Below are positions 99-62,287 of a DNA stretch of 64,000 nucleotides, piece after piece (the stretch's first letter is position 1; each line of letters begins with the position of its first letter). The notes under the pieces are model-generated. The model did no database searches. It worked only from the letters and a program-made list of their open reading frames with translations, and had not been told where the DNA came from. Location of the stretch: the UHGV virus genome UHGV-1440165. The stretch is one strand, 5' to 3'. Origin of the DNA: a virus. The position numbers and the translations under genes are program-made.

Positions 99-329
99 AT
101 GAAGGGCTTCCAGGACTTTCTTGAAGACTCGGCAGCCCCTGGCACCACTACCGCCGATGTGGGGAAACCCGAAGGCGGTATGGTGAAAGAGCCTGTCAAG
201 AAACCCAAGGATCTCGAGGAAGAACAAGAGAAGACCGACTTCCAAAAGATCTTTGGAAACATCTTCAAAGACCTGGATCTGAAGAATGCACGAAAGTGGA
301 ACTTCAGGACAGGAAAATATGAAGACTAA
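99..329 (+). CDS. Small internal-protein-like (IP-like) virion protein candidate
   Basis: N-terminus MKGFQDFLED resembles the T4 internal-protein capsid-targeting sequence (MKTYQEFIAE type); lysine/glutamate-rich 76 aa; followed by a terminator. Confidence 0.45.
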   Translation: MKGFQDFLEDSAAPGTTTADVGKPEGGMVKEPVKKPKDLEEEQEKTDFQKIFGNIFKDLDLKNARKWNFRTGKYED

Positions 330-4211: not shown

Positions 4212-4658
4212 ATGGAATACCCGCTAACTCACCAGATACAACCAACAGCCGACACGTGTATGTCAACGTGTCTGGCGATGTTGCTTGATCGCCCGGTTGC
4301 CCAGGTTGCCGAAACTTGGCATGAAAGTTTCGCAAATTGGGAAACCACTATCGGTGATGTTCTTTGTATGGAGGGGGTTCCGTTCTTGTACGGGAAGGGA
4401 ATCAACCAAACCGCCACCATATATCATGATTATGTCTATCTTCTTTGCGTGCCAAGTCCGGCAACACCAGGAATATTGCATCAGATCATTATGGATACCC
4501 GAGGCGACAAAGTTGTCATACACGACCCACTGAAGGGTACTGGTAAAAGATACTACACCCTGGATGAAGACGACAAATCTCCTCTGGCGGTGAAACTTGA
4601 AACTTGGGTGGTGGACTACATTGTCGACCCGTATGAAGTAGGAGGTTATCGTGGGTAA
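4212..4658 (+). CDS. Hypothetical protein with C39/papain-like cysteine peptidase motif
   Basis: Q-x6-CMSTCLAML matches the C39 active-site signature (Q..C...CLxM); downstream His/Asp candidates (VVIHDP); GGAGG-like SD 9 nt upstream of ATG 4212. Confidence 0.35.
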   Translation: MEYPLTHQIQPTADTCMSTCLAMLLDRPVAQVAETWHESFANWETTIGDVLCMEGVPFLYGKGINQTATIYHDYVYLLCVPSPATPGILHQIIMDTRGDKVVIHDPLKGTGKRYYTLDEDDKSPLAVKLETWVVDYIVDPYEVGGYRG

Positions 4659-5991
4659 GATGGTTGCCAAGAGCATTACTGTAACGGACTTTGTCAACAC
4701 GGACCACAAGGAGTTCTCGGTGGTCAACAGCATCCGTCAAATCCCTCAGCTGATTGACAGCCTCAAGCCAAGCCAGCGCAAGATCCTCTTCGCGGCTCTT
4801 GAGTACAACAAGGAGGAGATTGTTGACCGCCTTGGTATGTTCGCCGCCGCCCGCACGAACTACAAGTCTGGTGGCGAGAACATGAGCGGCACTATCGTGA
4901 ACATGGCTCAGGGCTTCCCAGGTACGAACAACATCCCGTACTTCGACCGCGATGGCCAGTTTGGTTCTATCATGGGGCGCGAAGCGTCGTCGGCTCGTTA
5001 TATTTCGGTTGCTGTATCTGATGTTATCCGCAAGATCTTCCGTAAGGAGGATGAGGGTATCTTGGAATACAACTACCTTGGTGAAGAGAAACTGGAACCG
5101 AAGTTCTTCCTGCCCATCCTTCCCATGTTCCTGGTGAATGGCATTAACGGTATCGGCTCCGGTTATGCCACCGACACCCCGTGCCATTGTGTTAAGTCCG
5201 TGCTGAACGCCCTGAGAGCACTTCTCCGTGGCGATAACCCGACGGACTTAAAACCGTACTGGAACGGCTACAAAGGAGAGACAGGCTATACTGAGGAAGG
5301 AAGAGCATACAGTCGCGGCATCTTCCGTCGCGTCAATGCCACGACCCTGCATATCACCGAAGTCCCAGTGGGCTGGTTCGCCAAGACCTATGAGACCAAG
5401 GTGTTGCTGCCTCTGTATAAGGCTGGTATCCTCACTGAGTACGCCAACGACACGACTGAAGACGGCTGGGACATCACCGTTGTGTTCAAGCGGGGCGAGC
5501 TGTCTAAGCTGGATGACGATCAGGTTGAGCAGATGTTCAAGTTGTACTCTGCTAACAAGCCTGTTTGGACAGCCTGGGATGAAGACGGTGTTATCCATCG
5601 CTATTCGGGTTGGCAGGATATGCTGCTGCCGTTCTTCAACTATCGCCTTTCCCGCTATGAAGACCGCCGCCAGTACATGCTGAAGGATATGGCCGACAGG
5701 ATCAGCAAGCTGGGTGACCGGGCAGTGTTCATTGAATGGGCGACGCGTGTTGATCTCCGCCAAAAGATTGATGTGCTGAAGTCTCTGTTCATGCAGGATT
5801 ACCCAGACTTCGGTGGTGACCTTGACGAGTTGTTCAAGATGCCGCTGTCATCAATCACCCTGGATGCTCGTGAGCGGCTGCTCAAGCAGATAGAGAACCT
5901 TGAAGCACAGCACAAGGAATTAAGTAAGAAAGAGGACATTGACCTCTACAACGAAGACCTTGATGACCTTGAAAAGGCTCTTGGTCTGTAA
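4651..5991 (+). CDS. 52: DNA topoisomerase II medium subunit (GyrA-like; T4 gp52)
   Basis: SVVNSIRQIPQLIDSLKPSQRKILFAALE and GyrA-like breakage-reunion region; ORF-track start 4651 is GTG, ATG at 4660 is the likelier start. Confidence 0.9.
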   Translation: MGKMVAKSITVTDFVNTDHKEFSVVNSIRQIPQLIDSLKPSQRKILFAALEYNKEEIVDRLGMFAAARTNYKSGGENMSGTIVNMAQGFPGTNNIPYFDRDGQFGSIMGREASSARYISVAVSDVIRKIFRKEDEGILEYNYLGEEKLEPKFFLPILPMFLVNGINGIGSGYATDTPCHCVKSVLNALRALLRGDNPTDLKPYWNGYKGETGYTEEGRAYSRGIFRRVNATTLHITEVPVGWFAKTYETKVLLPLYKAGILTEYANDTTEDGWDITVVFKRGELSKLDDDQVEQMFKLYSANKPVWTAWDEDGVIHRYSGWQDMLLPFFNYRLSRYEDRRQYMLKDMADRISKLGDRAVFIEWATRVDLRQKIDVLKSLFMQDYPDFGGDLDELFKMPLSSITLDARERLLKQIENLEAQHKELSKKEDIDLYNEDLDDLEKALGL

Positions 5992-15855: not shown

Positions 15856-15905
15856 AATCTAGTCCTAAATAGCCATAACACTCTATCTATTTAAGGGCTG
15901 AGACC

Positions 15906-37894: not shown

Positions 37895-38842
37895 GTGGAA
37901 GACTATCGCAATTTCATCACCCAATTGTTGCAGCGCGGGATATCGCGGAAGAACCGTTTCCGCGTCACCATCCCCCTGCCACCGGGCGTGTTCGATTCAA
38001 ACGCCACCCTGAGCAATGACGGGGATGCTTACAAATCAAGTTCATCATCGTTTGGCGACTTGTTTAAGGAGTCAGCCCGTATTGTAAACGCTTTCTTTGG
38101 AGGGACAAACCAGACGGCGCGTTCCCTTCAGATGATGTGTATGGTCGCAGGTCTGCCGGGGGTCGGCGTCGACACCACCCCAATGAACAACAACGGCAAC
38201 CACATCAAGATGCCAAACAACAAGTCCAACGTCGATCTGGATCTAACATTCCTCATTGCCAACGACTACTATGAGAAGTCGGTCATGGACAAATGGAAGA
38301 ATCTGATCTTTGATCCGTACACAACTAAGATGGGTTATTACGAAGACTTCGTGACTGACATCTGTATCGAGCAGATGGATACAGAAGACCAGGTTGTGCA
38401 CCGGGTGTACATCGTGGAGGCGCATCCGATCAACTTCAGCACGATTGACCTTGACAAGGGTGCAACAGATCAGTTCAACCAATACAACATCACATTCTCT
38501 TACAACAAAGTGTTATCGGAGACTGAGTATGAAACACGCAGCCTTGCCAGCGATTTTCTTCCTCTTGGGATTACTGACGCTCTTGCCAGTGGAGATTGGG
38601 AAACTGCGGCCTCAAAAGCCGGGCAACTTTATCGCAAGGTGAAGGAAGGCAACTTCACAGGGGAAGCGCTCCTGGCGTACAAGCAGCTGGATCAACTGGT
38701 AAACAATCTGGCTGGCATCAGCCTGCAGGACTTCGAGCGCATCTCTATCGGCATCTCTCGTGACATCATGGGGAATGATAACCTGACTGCAGCTGAAAAG
38801 ACCAGCCTGCTGGGTATCCTCCAGGACGTCATGGGCAAATAA
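37895..38842 (+). CDS. Baseplate/tail structural protein candidate (gp53/gp54/gp48-like?)
   Basis: 315 aa; N-terminus RKNRFRVTIPLPPG resembles the tail-tube-family start; late-promoter motif upstream. Confidence 0.4.
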   Translation: MEDYRNFITQLLQRGISRKNRFRVTIPLPPGVFDSNATLSNDGDAYKSSSSSFGDLFKESARIVNAFFGGTNQTARSLQMMCMVAGLPGVGVDTTPMNNNGNHIKMPNNKSNVDLDLTFLIANDYYEKSVMDKWKNLIFDPYTTKMGYYEDFVTDICIEQMDTEDQVVHRVYIVEAHPINFSTIDLDKGATDQFNQYNITFSYNKVLSETEYETRSLASDFLPLGITDALASGDWETAASKAGQLYRKVKEGNFTGEALLAYKQLDQLVNNLAGISLQDFERISIGISRDIMGNDNLTAAEKTSLLGILQDVMGK

Positions 38843-56643: not shown

Positions 56644-56997
56644 TTACGACAGCTGCTTCAGTTTGTAGATCGTCTGATAACACAGCGTCTTGATTTCATC
56701 AAGCGTGTTCTGAAGGTGGGAGTCACACTGCCTGTAGATGCCATCGACGTCTATCACCACGCTGTTGACATAGGAGATAGGGTCTGGGTTATAGAGCTTG
56801 ATGTTCTCAAACGACGGAACGTACTGGCCACCCGCACCGATGTATGCTTCGGTAAACGTGTCCAGCAAGTCCTCCAGTTCCCCGTAGAACTCCCCGAGAG
56901 CTTTGTGCTTGGCGTAGGACGTTGTAACGAAGTGCAGGGCATGAGAGTGGGCTATAGCAAGCAGTCCACGGTTGATGAAAATACTCGCGTTAACCAT
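56644..56997 (-). CDS. Hypothetical protein
   Basis: 117-aa ORF. Confidence 0.45.
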   Translation of the reverse strand: MVNASIFINRGLLAIAHSHALHFVTTSYAKHKALGEFYGELEDLLDTFTEAYIGAGGQYVPSFENIKLYNPDPISYVNSVVIDVDGIYRQCDSHLQNTLDEIKTLCYQTIYKLKQLS

Positions 56998-57086
56998 GAT
57001 TTGTTTCCTGTATTGTGAACCATCTAGTATTTAGTGTTAATGGGTCCATGAGGTACTATATAGAATAATATAACTGGAGAACGAAA

Positions 57087-57692
57087 ATGAAAACTTTTCA
57101 AGACTTTCTGACCGAAGCCGCGCCGCCGATGTTTGTTCATATCAAGGCAGACAAGATCGGCAAATCCACCGAAGACAATATCGGTACTTTCTTGCGAGTT
57201 AGTGTTAGTGGCGACAAAGCCACCTTTGAAACCCCTGACGGTCGCAAGATAATCCTGACGGGTGCTAAAGACATCATCTCGGCATCTGGCCTGAAAGATG
57301 GGCAGTTTGCCAGTGCCCAGATGATTGACAAGGTTGATACTGACACCGCTGTCAAGTACAACAAATCAGGCAAATATATTGACTTGTTGGATGTCAAATC
57401 AGGTATGGGTAATTCCTTTATCTCCATTGACGGTAACAAGCAATGGAAAGAAATGACCGAAGGTGGTTGGTATGCGTATAAAGGCGGTCGCCCCGGCTTG
57501 GCTCGTTATAAGATCGCTATGGTTATGGGACCTCATGCGGGTATGCCATCTCCTGGGGAAGATATTGAATACGAGTTACCGAATGGCGGCAAAGAACGCG
57601 GAACCGTCATGAAACTGAATGGTGCATCCAAGCTGATGGATGTCAAAAACGAAAAAGGTAAGAAAGTACAAGTCAGTATGTATGTGAAATAA
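57087..57692 (+). CDS. IP-like internal head protein candidate
   Basis: N-terminus MKTFQDFLTEAAPP matches the T4 IP capsid-targeting consensus and the 99-329 N-terminus; Lys/Gly-rich 201 aa. Confidence 0.5.
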   Translation: MKTFQDFLTEAAPPMFVHIKADKIGKSTEDNIGTFLRVSVSGDKATFETPDGRKIILTGAKDIISASGLKDGQFASAQMIDKVDTDTAVKYNKSGKYIDLLDVKSGMGNSFISIDGNKQWKEMTEGGWYAYKGGRPGLARYKIAMVMGPHAGMPSPGEDIEYELPNGGKERGTVMKLNGASKLMDVKNEKGKKVQVSMYVK

Positions 57693-57697
57693 CAAAA

Positions 57698-57722
57698 CCC
57701 CGCGAAAAGCGGGGTTTATTTT
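57698..57722. terminator. Bidirectional rho-independent terminator
   Basis: ccccgc-gaaaa-gcgggg hairpin flanked by A and T runs. Confidence 0.65.
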
Positions 57723-57752
57723 ACGACTCACCCGGTTGCAAAGTTCACCCTT

Positions 57753-58322
57753 CTACACAGGCTTGACGCCGAGGAACTTGGCGATATCAGCAGCCAGGTT
57801 TTTACCCTTGCTGATGTCGTGTTCTTTACCGCCGACAGTAACGATTACATATGGATCGTCTTCACCGCCGAAGTTCACAGACACAGCCTTACCATGGCCA
57901 GGGATGCCAGAGTATTCGAACTCAGTACGACCACTCTTGCGAGACTTGCCAACACCCAGTGCTTTACCGATCATCTTGTCCATGTTCGCCAGTTCCTGAG
58001 CATAGGCTTCAGTCACCTGGCCTTTGTCAGCAGACTTGCCAAAGAAGAATTCGAAACCGTCATGGACAGCAACGACTTCCTGACCTTGGGAGATACCGTG
58101 AGTCTGGTCTGGGGTCAGTTTCACCTTGATGGTGTTGCCGTTGGTTAACTCCAGGTTGTAGACATCCGCCTGATTGTCAGGAGTGATCTGGGTCACGGTA
58201 GCACCGGAGCACCACTGAGTGCCATCGGCCTGTTTGGTGATGGATACGCTTTTGCCTTGGACACCAGCATGGGTCTGAGGCTGTGCAGCTTGCTCTTTAA
58301 AATATTCGATAAAAGGTTTCAT
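57753..58322 (-). CDS. IP-like internal head protein candidate
   Basis: ATG 58322 gives MKPFIEYFKEQAAQP (capsid-targeting-like) with GAGGAGA SD; Gly/Lys-rich. Confidence 0.45.
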   Translation of the reverse strand: MKPFIEYFKEQAAQPQTHAGVQGKSVSITKQADGTQWCSGATVTQITPDNQADVYNLELTNGNTIKVKLTPDQTHGISQGQEVVAVHDGFEFFFGKSADKGQVTEAYAQELANMDKMIGKALGVGKSRKSGRTEFEYSGIPGHGKAVSVNFGGEDDPYVIVTVGGKEHDISKGKNLAADIAKFLGVKPV

Positions 58323-58394
58323 TGGATCTCTCCTCGGGGATTTAGATGTAATTAGCCCCCGGAGGGGCTTTATTCTGTTCAAGACCAGCTAGTT

Positions 58395-60398
58395 TCACCA
58401 AACATTCAGAAATAGTGCATGACCCATACCGCCGTTTGACTGAAGAGACCATTTTCCTGTTTCTCTTCCCAGGCGTTCTATGTTGTTGAGTTGGTTTATC
58501 GACAATTCAGAAGAGTCGAATAATACCACATCACGTTTTTTGGGTTCTCTCAAATAAGGTCCGAGATCAATATCAATCATCCGGTTTATAAATTCTACTA
58601 CTTCGGCTTGTTTCTTTGGTAATGTGATATCCGGCCTGTTTGTCACTTTCTCCAAGCGTCTATTTTCTGCGCTTATCATGGACAGCATAATTTGTGTAAC
58701 TTTGCCGTCAGACAAGTTGTAATCGTTCCAAATCACTTCACCTTTATCCGTGATGGTTATATCATTCAAGAAAACCTGGTTTGGGTTGTATGTCTGACTT
58801 TTCAACTGTTGGAGGTTTCTGGAAAGATATTCCATTTTTGATGAGATTTCATCGATCATGGATTGAACAATATCTTTCTTCAAAGTAAGTTCATAGGTCT
58901 TCGGATTGTTCAGGGTACGCCCTTTCTGGGAGACAATTGGGGTGAATGCAACTTTGCCTTTGTCATGATAATAGGTTACGTTGGTTATCATAGAAGTACC
59001 GGCATATTTTCCGGTTTCAGGGAAATTGATTCCAGACCAAGTGATGGACATGCCGTTCTCTGTTTCCCCGAACACTGATGCGTTTTTCGGGATTCGCAGA
59101 TCTTTAGAACTGATTGCATTTGGATTCGGTTCTGCTGCTTTCGCCTGAGGAGCCAACTGATCGATAGCACCCTGTACCACTCCAGTCAATTTGGATGGTT
59201 TGGTGATGTCGATGTCACGGATTACGATAGGCTGGCCGATGGTTTGCCCACCAGGTCCCAATTCTGTAACTGCCTTGACTGTCAAGACAATCGGATCACT
59301 CCCTTTGATGATGCCACGGTTGATTGTGGCCACCACTGCAGATTTACCGCCGAATGTCAAGCTACCAGAGGCCATTGTCATAGAGGATACGCCGCGAAGA
59401 TCATTCACTTTGTAGAATGCGTTCACCAGAGCACGCCAGCGGTCTGTTGTGAGTTCGGCTGCCGTGGTTTGAGCAGGAGCCACAGCCCCAACGCCAAATT
59501 CAACATAAGCCACAATCTTACCACCAGACTTCAGTTCCCAACCCATGCCCTGGCGGTCAGAAGCCGCCATGATTTTGCGATCCACTTCCCCACGACCAAC
59601 ATACTCTTTGTCGAACACAGTTACCTGGGCGATGGTTTGGGTGCGGGCAATCTTCGCCATTGCGCCATCTTTGACCATGATGGCCAGGTCGTTGGAACTC
59701 AGAGTCACATCGTTGGCACCGACCACCTTCACAACAGAACTGAAGATGCCGTTGGATTTTGCCATGACGGAAATGTTCCAGTCTGGATTGTTGGGCGAAG
59801 CCCCCACATCCGGAGTATTGTTCTGAACCGGAACGTCGCCGACCTTGTCTGGATCATCCCAGGTGATGCCCTGCATCTTCGGACCGTCGAATACCTGAGC
59901 CGGATCTTTGCCCTTGCGGACCAGCCACACATAACCACGGTCAGGGACAGGCGCGTAAGTCAGGTCCATGACGTTCAGTTTCTGTTTCAAACCAGACTGA
60001 CGGATGATCTTTGGAATCAGGGTCATACCGCGATCCAGGGCTTTCTTGGAGAAGTTCACAGCATAGCCATCGATAGTCTTGCCAAGAGGAGTCGCCATGA
60101 ATTGTTTGGTCGCTTCGATCATGGAGGCGATGACGCGCATTGGGTTCTTGAAGCGAGCAATAGCGTCAGGGTAGACGGAGCCGCGCTTCTGGCCTATGAA
60201 GACCTGGCGGACATTCTTGCCCAACCCCTGTGGGGTATAGAACTGGATGCGGTATTCTTTTTCATCTTCGTCGATGAAGGTGAAGAACACATCGCCTGCG
60301 TTCTTCTTGCCCATGGTCAGCTCATACGGAGCGGAGTTGAACGCTTCGTCCAACTGATCTCTTTCCTGCATGAACTGGAGGAAACTTGGCTTTGACAT
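58395..60398 (-). CDS. Large hypothetical protein, possibly virion-packaged
   Basis: 667 aa; N-terminus MSKPSFLQFMQERDQLDE has L-x-E sites reminiscent of prohead-protease targeting; no catalytic motif identified. Confidence 0.5.
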   Translation of the reverse strand: MSKPSFLQFMQERDQLDEAFNSAPYELTMGKKNAGDVFFTFIDEDEKEYRIQFYTPQGLGKNVRQVFIGQKRGSVYPDAIARFKNPMRVIASMIEATKQFMATPLGKTIDGYAVNFSKKALDRGMTLIPKIIRQSGLKQKLNVMDLTYAPVPDRGYVWLVRKGKDPAQVFDGPKMQGITWDDPDKVGDVPVQNNTPDVGASPNNPDWNISVMAKSNGIFSSVVKVVGANDVTLSSNDLAIMVKDGAMAKIARTQTIAQVTVFDKEYVGRGEVDRKIMAASDRQGMGWELKSGGKIVAYVEFGVGAVAPAQTTAAELTTDRWRALVNAFYKVNDLRGVSSMTMASGSLTFGGKSAVVATINRGIIKGSDPIVLTVKAVTELGPGGQTIGQPIVIRDIDITKPSKLTGVVQGAIDQLAPQAKAAEPNPNAISSKDLRIPKNASVFGETENGMSITWSGINFPETGKYAGTSMITNVTYYHDKGKVAFTPIVSQKGRTLNNPKTYELTLKKDIVQSMIDEISSKMEYLSRNLQQLKSQTYNPNQVFLNDITITDKGEVIWNDYNLSDGKVTQIMLSMISAENRRLEKVTNRPDITLPKKQAEVVEFINRMIDIDLGPYLREPKKRDVVLFDSSELSINQLNNIERLGRETGKWSLQSNGGMGHALFLNVW

Positions 60399-60443
60399 TT
60401 TATATCTCCTGATGGGAATATGGCGGTTTCCCTTAATTAGCGA

Positions 60444-61034: not shown

Positions 61035-61673
61035 TTACGGTGTTGGGTTCACAACAGGAATATGGAATCTGATTCCAGCGATGATGTCCTTCAGCTGAGG
61101 TTTCCAGCCAGCCACCAAGCGAGGGAGAGCGACAGAACCGGGCTGAACTAAAATGATGTCGCTGCCTGTGATGTTGTGCTGAGGGAATTGGGCAAGATAT
61201 TGCTCCATTGTGACGCCCGGATCAATCAGAACAGGACCAACATCAGATGATGCATAAGTCGCACCCAGACCGTCAACACCCCATGCCAAGATACCCCAGT
61301 CAGGGATGTTGGCTTCAGATGTGATGGTGAACCCAAACACGGTGTTCAGCGAGGTGAAGGAGTAGACGTCGTGAGTGATGTCATACACCAGATACCCCTT
61401 GGCCAGCATATCGGCAAAGATCGCGTCTGTGTCTCCCGCCGCTGGAGTCGGTACGGTAAACAACAGCTCACCAGCCGGAGGAACAGGATACGTGCCGAGG
61501 GCATAGAGGCACCATGCGTCAATGCACTTCTTAATGAATGTCTCTGACGCCACATAATCGGCAAGGCGAACCGTGCCTGAGTACTCGGATACGATGATGC
61601 CTTCCTTCGCGCCCTGTAGAGCAATGAAGACCAAGATATGTTCATATCCGGTCTGGGATGGAGTGATGTTCAT
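61035..61673 (-). CDS. Hypothetical protein
   Basis: 212-aa ORF. Confidence 0.5.
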   Translation of the reverse strand: MNITPSQTGYEHILVFIALQGAKEGIIVSEYSGTVRLADYVASETFIKKCIDAWCLYALGTYPVPPAGELLFTVPTPAAGDTDAIFADMLAKGYLVYDITHDVYSFTSLNTVFGFTITSEANIPDWGILAWGVDGLGATYASSDVGPVLIDPGVTMEQYLAQFPQHNITGSDIILVQPGSVALPRLVAGWKPQLKDIIAGIRFHIPVVNPTP

Positions 61674-62287
61674 TATCTTGTCCTCTTCAGTTTCTCTATT
61701 GTGCGCTTGTTCATGGCGATCACCTGAGGGTCCACCTCAGAGATTGAGCGCCCTTTGAAGGACACACATTTCTGAAGATATTTAGCTTTCTTCACGACGT
61801 CAGCAGCATATGCATTGGACGCAGAATTACGGGCGAAGCCAGCATTGTACGAGGAGAGGGATTTGCGGACATTCTGTTTGTGATAGGTCAACCAGAACTG
61901 CATCTCATCGAGGGCGGCCTGAGCAGCATATTCCTGATCAGTCAGCAGCTTGACAGCAACATTGGCATAACACTTGCGATTCTTACAACCTTCGCGATCA
62001 CCAACAGTCTTCACCTTATTCTGAAAGGCTCCCATGTTGGCCGCCTTGAGGCCGTATCGCATTGACACTACATCTTCACCAGCGCGGCTCTCTCGCCAGG
62101 ATATGGCAGCCAGGGTGTAACCAAGATCTTGTGTCTTGCCTATGTGATAGGCAGTTGCCAGCGTATTAAGTTGTTGCTCAGAGAAATCATAAACACATTG
62201 ACTTGTATTTTGGGAAGCGTGCACATTCCCGCTGGCAATGGTAAAGGTCACGGATAAGGCCATGGCCTTCAACGTTGTCATCGTCAT
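61673..62287 (-). CDS. Secreted lytic transglycosylase-like (SLT domain) protein
   Basis: Signal-peptide-like N-terminus; SLT-type motifs ISWRESRAG, MGAFQ, SYNAGF. Confidence 0.5.
   Translation of the reverse strand: MTMTTLKAMALSVTFTIASGNVHASQNTSQCVYDFSEQQLNTLATAYHIGKTQDLGYTLAAISWRESRAGEDVVSMRYGLKAANMGAFQNKVKTVGDREGCKNRKCYANVAVKLLTDQEYAAQAALDEMQFWLTYHKQNVRKSLSSYNAGFARNSASNAYAADVVKKAKYLQKCVSFKGRSISEVDPQVIAMNKRTIEKLKRTR

Follow-up and report, generated by a model that had tools for sequence, protein, structure and literature searches.

T4-like capsid-targeting N-termini mark candidate head-internal, injected proteins in an Agtrevirus-like phage

We analyzed a stretch of 64,000 nucleotides (nt) of the UHGV virus genome UHGV-1440165, hereafter the window, in which four open reading frames (ORFs) encoding proteins of 76, 201, 189 and 667 amino acids (aa) begin with a common leader of about ten residues that resembles the capsid-targeting sequence (CTS) of the T4 internal proteins (IPs). 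A first-pass annotation of the window had listed these four ORFs, and all of them are present (Table 1). It had omitted that the 189-aa and 667-aa ORFs lie on the minus strand, and that the 189-aa ORF, counted from its ATG, is contained in a longer ORF that starts with TTG and reaches 58382. Megablast searches with the two ends of the window matched 250-280 Ackermannviridae records; at both ends the closest relatives were the Agtrevirus phages Ag3, MK-13, Gloob, ChubbyThor and FEC14, together with pSal-SNUABM-02, at 88-95% identity. Judged by these matches, the source phage is an Agtrevirus-like (ViI-like) member of the Ackermannviridae. Ag3 is collinear with the window from the Hoc-like Ig-domain gene to the gp46-like recombination nuclease gene, and the head-morphogenesis genes are located outside the window.

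Table 1. Leader-bearing genes and associated features of the window. A slash marks a candidate cut site.
Feature	Position	Strand	Details
76-aa ORF	99-329	+	MKGFQDFLED/SAAPG...; leader = codons 1-10 (99-128)
201-aa accessory cassette gene	57087-57692	+	MKTFQDFLTE/AAPPMF...; leader 57087-57116
189-aa ORF	57753-58322	-	MKPFIEYFKE/QAAQP...; leader 58293-58322
667-aa mosaic protein	58395-60398	-	MSKPSFLQFMQE/RDQLDE/AF...; leader motif residues 3-12 (60363-60392)
Ip9-like C-terminal domain of 667-aa protein	58407-58589 (residues 604-664)	-	PHROG 7673
Dps/ferritin-like DUF5856 gene	56644-56997	-	bounds variable slot; without leader
201-aa upstream signals	CTATATA 57056-57062; GGAG Shine-Dalgarno 57076-57079	+	putative promoter, by sequence inspection
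GC-rich hairpin with A/T-run flanks (aaaaccccgcgaaaagcggggtttatttt)	57694-57723		between convergent 201-aa and 189-aa genes; read from sequence
CTAATTA late-promoter-like motif	58349-58355	-	33 nt upstream of 189-aa start; terminator hairpin precedes
CTAATTA late-promoter-like motif	60434-60440	-	42 nt upstream of 667-aa start
CTAAATA	57028-57034	-	37 nt upstream of Dps-like gene

The motif MK-x-[FY]-x-[DE]-[FY]-[LIVMF]-x-[DE] occurs three times in the six-frame translation of the window, each time directly after a start Met, whereas 0.023 occurrences were expected from the window's own six-frame composition, from which the expected motif counts were derived. The core motif did not occur in any of 200 codon shuffles. 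When the pattern was anchored to the start (^MK.[FY].[DE][FY][LIVMF].[DE]), it matched 3 of 2312 candidate starts, which are those of the 76-, 201- and 189-aa ORFs, against an expectation of ~0.0004. A position matrix derived from related leaders gave the four ORFs 22-29 bits and the next candidate 5 bits, although partial circularity affects this test. In a ranking based solely on T-even leaders, which avoids the circularity, the 201-aa ORF came first among 2306 starts (z ~6.4), the 76-aa ORF fourth and the 189-aa ORF eighth. A chance origin of the shared N-termini is excluded. Three other candidate leaders, at 38330 (MGYYEDFVTD), 22421 (MADFLQYVYD) and 49149 (MVKKFYEYAST), were rejected as internal starts of longer genes that have no Shine-Dalgarno sequence. 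The leader is conserved at the protein level across bodies with no homology to one another, and its conserved residues are coded differently among the paralogues (AAG/AAA, TTC/TTT, CAG/CAA, CTT/CTG, GAA/GAG). This use of different synonymous codons indicates that selection acts on the peptide.

The CTS of the T4 proteins IPI, IPII and IPIII (Mullaney & Black; reviewed in PMC9026906 and PMC3012670) provides a residue-level map for comparison. The first ten residues of IPIII are enough for packaging in T4, and amber-suppression mapping of IPIII assigned residues 4 and 7, which are aromatic in T4, to targeting and residues 8 and 10 to processing; the protease gp21 cuts after L/I-x-E, and Asp at position 10 of the leader blocks processing while targeting is kept (PMC9026906). 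We aligned the window leaders (Table 1; (MS)KPSFLQFMQE/R in the 667-aa protein) with those in the T4 record (IPII/IPIII MKTYQEFIAE/A; IPI MKTFKEF...ITE/A) and the RB32 record (Ip7 MKTFKEFINE/AAAP; Ip9 MKTYQEFISE/AA). They agree with the T-even leaders at the mapped targeting positions and in part at the processing positions, which bears out the first-pass proposal of T4-like N-termini. The targeting positions are occupied by F4 and F/Y7 in the 76-, 201- and 189-aa proteins and by F6 and F9 in the 667-aa protein, and these residues are invariant in homologues. At the processing site, residues 8-10, the 201-aa protein fits L/I-x-E (L-T-E). The 667-aa protein has M-Q-E plus an invariant L-D-E/A at residues 16-18, the 189-aa protein has F-K-E here and L/V-x-E in distant relatives, and the 76-aa protein has L-E-D, so that with Asp at position 10 it departs from the site. 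Like the T4 IPs, the 201-aa and 667-aa proteins are basic in their predicted mature forms (pI 9.3 and 9.2, respectively).

The 76-aa ORF starts 2 nt past the stop codon of the Hoc-like Ig-domain gene. Its family (PHROG 4805) was present in 18 of 18 recovered loci from several genera, where the proteins are 76-97% identical to that of the window and always show ..LED at residues 8-10; the predicted mature product is a low-complexity protein of ~7.5 kDa with a pI of 6.2. The 189-aa protein belongs to PHROG 4048. A GAGGAG Shine-Dalgarno sequence precedes its start ATG, which is also the annotated start in all homologues. In 20 related loci the family always begins MK[PTSK]F..[YF][FL].E/QA, and homologues at 37-65% identity keep MK.F..[FY][LFV].E/[QA]A, for example MKTFKQFLTE and MKTFKDFVAE. 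The protein consists of two modules that meet at QVTE/AYAQ, at about residue 104. Distant homologues of 103-104 aa end with ..[AG]TE at precisely this boundary, and a 181-aa variant departs from the family sequence just after it, so that the domain boundary coincides with a possible second protease site.

The first-pass annotation had called the N-terminus of the 667-aa protein only loosely similar to the others. We found that it carries the same motif with an offset of two residues. Homologues of this large protein start M[SA]..[SN]FL.F[ML].E in all but three of the 120 clusters listed; F6, L7, F9 and E12 are invariant in the other 117, and the remaining three start upstream of the leader. 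QLDE/AF, at residues 15-20, never varies and forms a second L-x-E/A site. The N-terminal module (residues 1-190) hardly changes between homologues. It is followed by a stretch that varies or is replaced (205-420), one that the family has in common (425-590) and one found in about half of the homologues (590-667); family members are 541 to 1105 aa long. The C-terminal module matches PHROG 7673, "internal head protein" (E=2e-8). A tblastn search with this module recovered about 150 T-even (Straboviridae) records annotated as Ip9 or internal head protein and belonging to the ipI locus (E 1e-6 to 1e-3), and its pairwise alignment with RB32 Ip9 shows 43% identity over 61 aa (E=6e-13). Through this homology the 667-aa protein is linked to genuine internal proteins of T-even phages by evidence other than the leader.

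T4 IPI was rejected as a relative of the 667-aa protein, to which it has no similarity; the PHROG "internal head protein" match is to Ip9. Searches of the 667-aa protein against PDB sequences gave no match, and Pfam searches on ten length variants of the large protein gave no domains. With the structural model of the 667-aa protein, which is of low confidence in the N-terminal module, Foldseek retrieved two Alt proteins of Aeromonas T4-like phages (E ~8e-4). Homology to Alt was not confirmed by hhalign against T4 Alt, whose scores were not significant (E=0.87, 0.48), and a search with the Alt N-terminal region returned only five near-identical matches. In LIMEstone1 the large protein is split (4348-4839 and downstream). 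The leader there is on a 163-aa ORF, apparently ORF82 (18.8 kDa), and the second piece (~41 kDa; apparently ORF81, 23 peptides) has no leader of its own; both pieces are in the virion.

The evidence from virions comes from published proteomes of relatives. In CsCl-purified Sajous1 virions, gp214 gave 196 spectra and was among the five most abundant proteins, and gp215, gp216 and gp217 gave 32, 20 and 10 spectra, respectively (PMC10892097). By synteny, gp214 is the homologue of the 667-aa protein and gp215 that of the 189-aa protein. The leader is present on gp214-216, of which gp216 is a 79-aa protein encoded in a variable slot of the locus. LIMEstone1 virions contain ORF78, 80, 81, 82 and 85, an unexplained structural-protein cluster (PMC3296691), in which ORF80 is the 189-aa homologue and ORF81/82 the 667-aa homologue. 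A further Sajous1 protein, gp116 (MW021757 71641-72090; 149 aa), combines the N-terminus MKTFLEFYRE with an ART-PolyVal ADP-ribosyltransferase (ART) domain (Pfam E=9e-11); 10 spectra place it in the virion, and MK-13 lacks it.

In the close relative MK-13, a whole-genome scan found the leader on gp055, gp120, gp121, gp122, gp123 and gp207. The same genome encodes a gp21-type protease (Peptidase_S77, E=2e-30) and a gp22-type scaffold (T4_CASP, E=5e-44). Its major capsid protein matched only T4-family capsids in the PDB, and the cleavage site could therefore not be read from a structure of the Ackermannviridae. MK-13 gp207 (NC_049455.1 60512-60709) is a 65-aa ORF that begins MKTFGDFIAE, the closest T4-leader match in that genome, and sits among tRNA genes, as T4 ipI adjoins the T4 tRNA cluster. 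Leader-related N-terminal motifs are also found on the gp22-like scaffold itself, gp182 (94647-95519; MKPELQKLFE/G), and on gp184 (93620-93925; ..TFADFLASRMDE), a small head-gene product annotated "head scaffolding protein" (MEIEEVATFADFLASRMDE).

The 201-aa gene is inverted relative to the surrounding minus-strand cluster and lies in the variable slot, between the 189-aa and Dps-like genes. It was found in 15 phage records of the ~280 records of the family, as counted from neighboring-DNA (megablast) searches, spread over Agtrevirus, Kuttervirus and Taipeivirus, and its protein family forms 5 clusters among 5.8 billion proteins. The gene occupies the same slot in Klebsiella FKP10 and the other side of the Dps gene in CRW-SP2. 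A homologue is also encoded by S117, a phage for which portal or capsid deletions have yielded tailocins (PMC11721090). In relatives, the slot is empty (a gap of 63-98 nt), holds a 79-80-aa gene or a 142-160-aa gene, or holds 160-aa and 201-aa genes together (MK-13); in the window the only gene there is the inverted 201-aa one. All ORFs of the slot, whether of 79-80, 142-160 or 201 aa, begin with the leader, and the 160-aa form is the 79-aa body with an extra domain. The 201-aa protein matched no Pfam or PHROG family. Its AlphaFold2 (AF2) model (pLDDT 77) shows a short N-terminal helix followed by SH3/Tudor-like barrels, and the C-terminal barrel is homologous to the body of the 79-aa slot protein (E=7e-5). 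No convincing repeats flanking the cassette were found. The first-pass description of the proteins as diversified suits only the 201-aa cassette and, in the 667-aa protein, the C-terminal half; the families of the 76-aa and 189-aa proteins are conserved core genes. The Dps-like DUF5856 protein occurs in virions of three relatives despite lacking the leader.

The motif CTAAWTA has only seven occurrences in the window. Four genes have it 33-42 nt ahead of their starts, namely the 667-aa, 189-aa and Dps-like genes and a baseplate gene; the sites ahead of structural or virion genes are at 15865, 57034, 58355 and 60440. In MK-13 the motif also precedes the portal, sheath, tube and scaffold genes. 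The late promoter of the ViI-like family lacks experimental definition (PMC3184105), and CTAA[AT]TA may be this promoter, comparable to T4 TATAAATA. The exact sequence CTAAATA was discarded as an enriched motif of the window (5 observed vs 3.2 expected), and only its placement is suggestive. CTATATA, upstream of the 201-aa gene, is the same late-type motif with one mismatch, and the hairpin that follows this gene is probably a bidirectional intrinsic terminator common to the 201-aa and 189-aa genes. Another gene of the window, 61673-62287 (minus strand), is annotated in relatives as the RegB endoribonuclease. Its product has a signal-peptide-like N-terminus and a borderline match to an SLT transglycosylase (21.0 bits vs a cutoff of 21.3), and its homologues are virion-associated (Sajous1 gp211, 31 spectra; LIMEstone1 ORF85). 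The RegB label looks wrong.

Overall, it is well supported that the T4-IP-like, capsid-targeting N-termini mark candidate head-internal, injected proteins, and the four leader-bearing genes probably encode such proteins, some of which have been published as tail parts. As the whole explanation for this phage, T4-style head loading by an N-terminal CTS appears likely to us. In this scheme, a CTS of ~10 residues (M-K-x-F-x-[D/E]-[F/Y]-[L/F]-x-E) would bind its bearer to the gp22-type scaffolding core during prohead assembly, the gp21-type (S77) prohead protease would cut after Glu, and the mature protein would remain inside the head beside the DNA and exit with it at infection. Two of the four bearers are conserved, the 189-aa protein and the 76-aa protein, whose gene would be transcribed together with that of the Hoc-like decoration protein. 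The others are the 201-aa protein, from an accessory cassette in a presence/absence slot, and the 667-aa protein, in which an invariant N-terminal module is joined to exchangeable C-terminal modules, one of them Ip9-like. We infer core targeting, cleavage, location in the head interior and ejection by analogy with T4. The N-terminal peptides predicted to follow the cut are QAQQPQTHGGIQGK for gp215, SKQLDEAFNSAPYELTFGK or AFNSAPYELTFGK for gp214, and AAPPMFVHIK for the 201-aa protein.

Several observations weigh against T4-style head loading of these proteins. Homologues of the 189-aa and 667-aa proteins are listed in the published virion proteomes, but those of the 76-aa protein, Sajous1 gp82 and LIMEstone1 ORF7, are not. 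The 76-aa family has an invariant Asp at position 10, the residue that blocks processing in T4 (PMC9026906), and the 189-aa leader has Phe at P3 instead of Leu/Ile. The protease and scaffold genes lie outside the window and are confirmed only in the relative MK-13. Finally, the sole paper that discusses these virion proteins places them in the tail (PMC10892097).

That paper proposed that Sajous1 gp214-217 form an iron/molybdate "ferrojan horse" entry device, in which case the proteins would be tail parts and the motif would be unrelated to the head. Occurrence of the homologues in purified virions is compatible with this proposal, as are the Phyre2 matches of gp215 to the molybdate-binding BiMOP (63% confidence) and of gp217 to ferritin (PMC10892097), the sub-threshold TOBE match of the 189-aa protein (Pfam, E=0.007, 17 bits vs a cutoff of 22.3) and the Dps-like neighboring gene. 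However, virion mass spectrometry cannot separate head contents from tail, the "tail completion" label of gp214 is unsupported by Pfam or PHROG, and the abstract of PMC10892097 reports no dependence on the pathway for the single host tested. A tail device also leaves unexplained the T4-type leader on non-homologous proteins, the Ip9-like domain and the leader on the ART protein, and we regard it as very unlikely. An even smaller chance attaches to the idea that the N-terminal similarity stems from a recent duplication or from an element acting at the nucleotide level, for instance in translation initiation or as an mRNA operator. In favor of it, translational operators near start codons are known in T4-type phages (RegA), and the bearers, all of them probably late genes, have strong Shine-Dalgarno sites. 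The codons for the conserved residues nevertheless differ among paralogues, the upstream regions differ among bearers, the motif persists at 37% body identity, and in the 667-aa gene it is shifted by two codons, which makes such an element highly improbable.

An account closer to head loading grants that the leader targets the prohead core but gives some bearers, the 76-aa protein first among them, a part in assembly or in the core, as with T4 gp67/gp68; at maturation they would be degraded or expelled, or they would stay uncleaved, and they would not be injected effectors. The 76-aa family, with its 76-97% identity across genera, its low complexity and its position directly behind the Hoc-like head gene, suits such a role. 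The family's homologue is missing from the LIMEstone1 and Sajous1 lists though the equally small gp216 was detected, its Asp at position 10 blocks processing and not targeting in T4 (PMC9026906), and the related N-terminal motifs on the MK-13 scaffold and gp184 (MKPELQKLFE; ..TFADFLASRMDE) point the same way. On the other hand, gel-slice or tryptic mass spectrometry easily misses small Lys-rich proteins, and an alternative cut of the 76-aa protein at F-L-E/D is possible. Conservation alone is also compatible with an injected role, T4 IPIII being fairly widespread as well. We consider that explanation unlikely.

With regard to function, each of the T4 proteins Ip1, Ip2 and Ip3 is an inhibitor of its own GmrSD type IV restriction enzyme (PMC12373910), and ViI-like DNA is hypermodified with 5-NeOmdU (PMC5889632). 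By analogy, we tentatively suggest that the variable members, namely the 201-aa cassette and the C-terminal modules of the 667-aa protein, could be injected counter-defense proteins, an assignment that is possible but doubtful. An arms-race signature is visible in the rarity of the 201-aa gene, its occurrence once at another position and the mosaic structure of the large protein. Domain searches and structure prediction found no informative functional domain or specific structural clue for the window leader proteins. For the two conserved proteins, of 76 and 189 aa, a core or structural role may apply instead. A broader and more speculative proposal, which we regard as rather unlikely in its full extent, is that Ackermannviridae and T-even phages share one address label that would allow injected effector modules to be exchanged and recombined across families. 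The variable slot (empty, 79, 142-160 or 201 aa) and the mosaic C-terminal half of the abundant 541-1105-aa protein, which here ends in the Ip9 module, would then form a hypervariable arsenal of head-delivered inhibitors acting, for example, against type IV restriction enzymes that attack 5-NeOmdU DNA, and the "ferrojan horse" tail operon would be the family's internal-protein locus.

The kind of system described here is known from T-even phages, as the T4 internal proteins with their CTS; here it is proposed for the Ackermannviridae. In the literature searched, no report linked the Ackermannviridae to a capsid-targeting sequence, and the words "internal", "injected" and "anti-defense" are absent from a 2024 review of the family. 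The only published interpretation of these virion proteins, as a tail operon, differs from a location inside the head. The Ackermannviridae, which include ViI, CBA120, Ag3, LIMEstone and the Klebsiella Taipeivirus phages, are widely used for biocontrol and therapy. If the leader works as in T4, it would give a simple sequence rule for listing the injected proteins of ~280 sequenced phages and a short list of candidate counter-defense genes that could explain differences in host range. It would likewise move abundant virion proteins, including a Sajous1 protein in the top five by spectra, from the tail to the head interior, and foreign proteins could be packaged into these phages with the leader as a ready-made tag, for which T4 sets the precedent. 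Internal-protein bodies do pass from one phage family to another, as the Ip9-like module shows.

Compared with other packaged proteins, such as DarA, DarB and Hdf of P1, the ejection proteins of phiKZ and SPN3US, and polyvalent proteins, the window proteins would follow a common logic of head loading during assembly and delivery with the DNA. Those proteins are often cut at Glu by a gp21-like protease, and the large modular ones carry exchangeable effector domains. The window proteins have no sequence relationship to them, and the targeting signals there differ from the T4-type leader. The resemblance to the T4 IPs is more specific. As in T4, the leader takes up ten residues from the start Met: positions 4 and 7 are aromatic, position 8 is aliphatic, and Glu at position 10 precedes Ala or Gln. 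The bodies show no relationship to one another, the genes are probably late, some of the proteins have homologues in virions, and a gp21/gp22-type protease and scaffold occur in the Ackermannviridae. The predicted mature 201-aa form (20.7 kDa, pI 9.3) resembles T4 IPIII* (20.4 kDa, pI 9.65). Unlike in T4, the phage family is the Ackermannviridae, with thymidine-hypermodified DNA instead of the glucosyl-hydroxymethylcytosine (glucosyl-hmC) of T4, and the window leaders read Asp/Glu-Phe/Tyr-Leu/Phe where T4 has Glu-Phe-Ile. One bearer (667 aa) has a leader offset by two and another (76 aa) has Asp at position 10, and two of the bearers, unlike T4 IPs, are conserved core genes.

The 667-aa protein has a general likeness to T4 Alt, a basic, head-packaged protein of 682 aa with the propeptide MELITE/, a non-catalytic N-terminal region and a C-terminal effector domain; in contrast to Alt, it has no ART domain in Pfam searches. 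Sajous1 gp116, as a leader-tagged ART, is a parallel to Alt as a packaged ADP-ribosyltransferase. Whereas T-even Ip9 is a free-standing protein of 90 aa with its own leader, its counterpart in the window is the C-terminal end of a large mosaic protein. The variable slot differs from the T-even ipI locus in the inverted orientation of the window cassette and in the promoter-like region and terminator that belong to it, and RB32 has annotated 43-bp repeats where no flanking direct repeats were found here. In its overall behavior, however, the slot is like the hyperplastic ipI locus of the T-even phages RB32, RB15, K3 and the VR phages, in which alternative leader-bearing genes swap or are absent, as in the Ip5/Ip9/Ip7 array of RB32.

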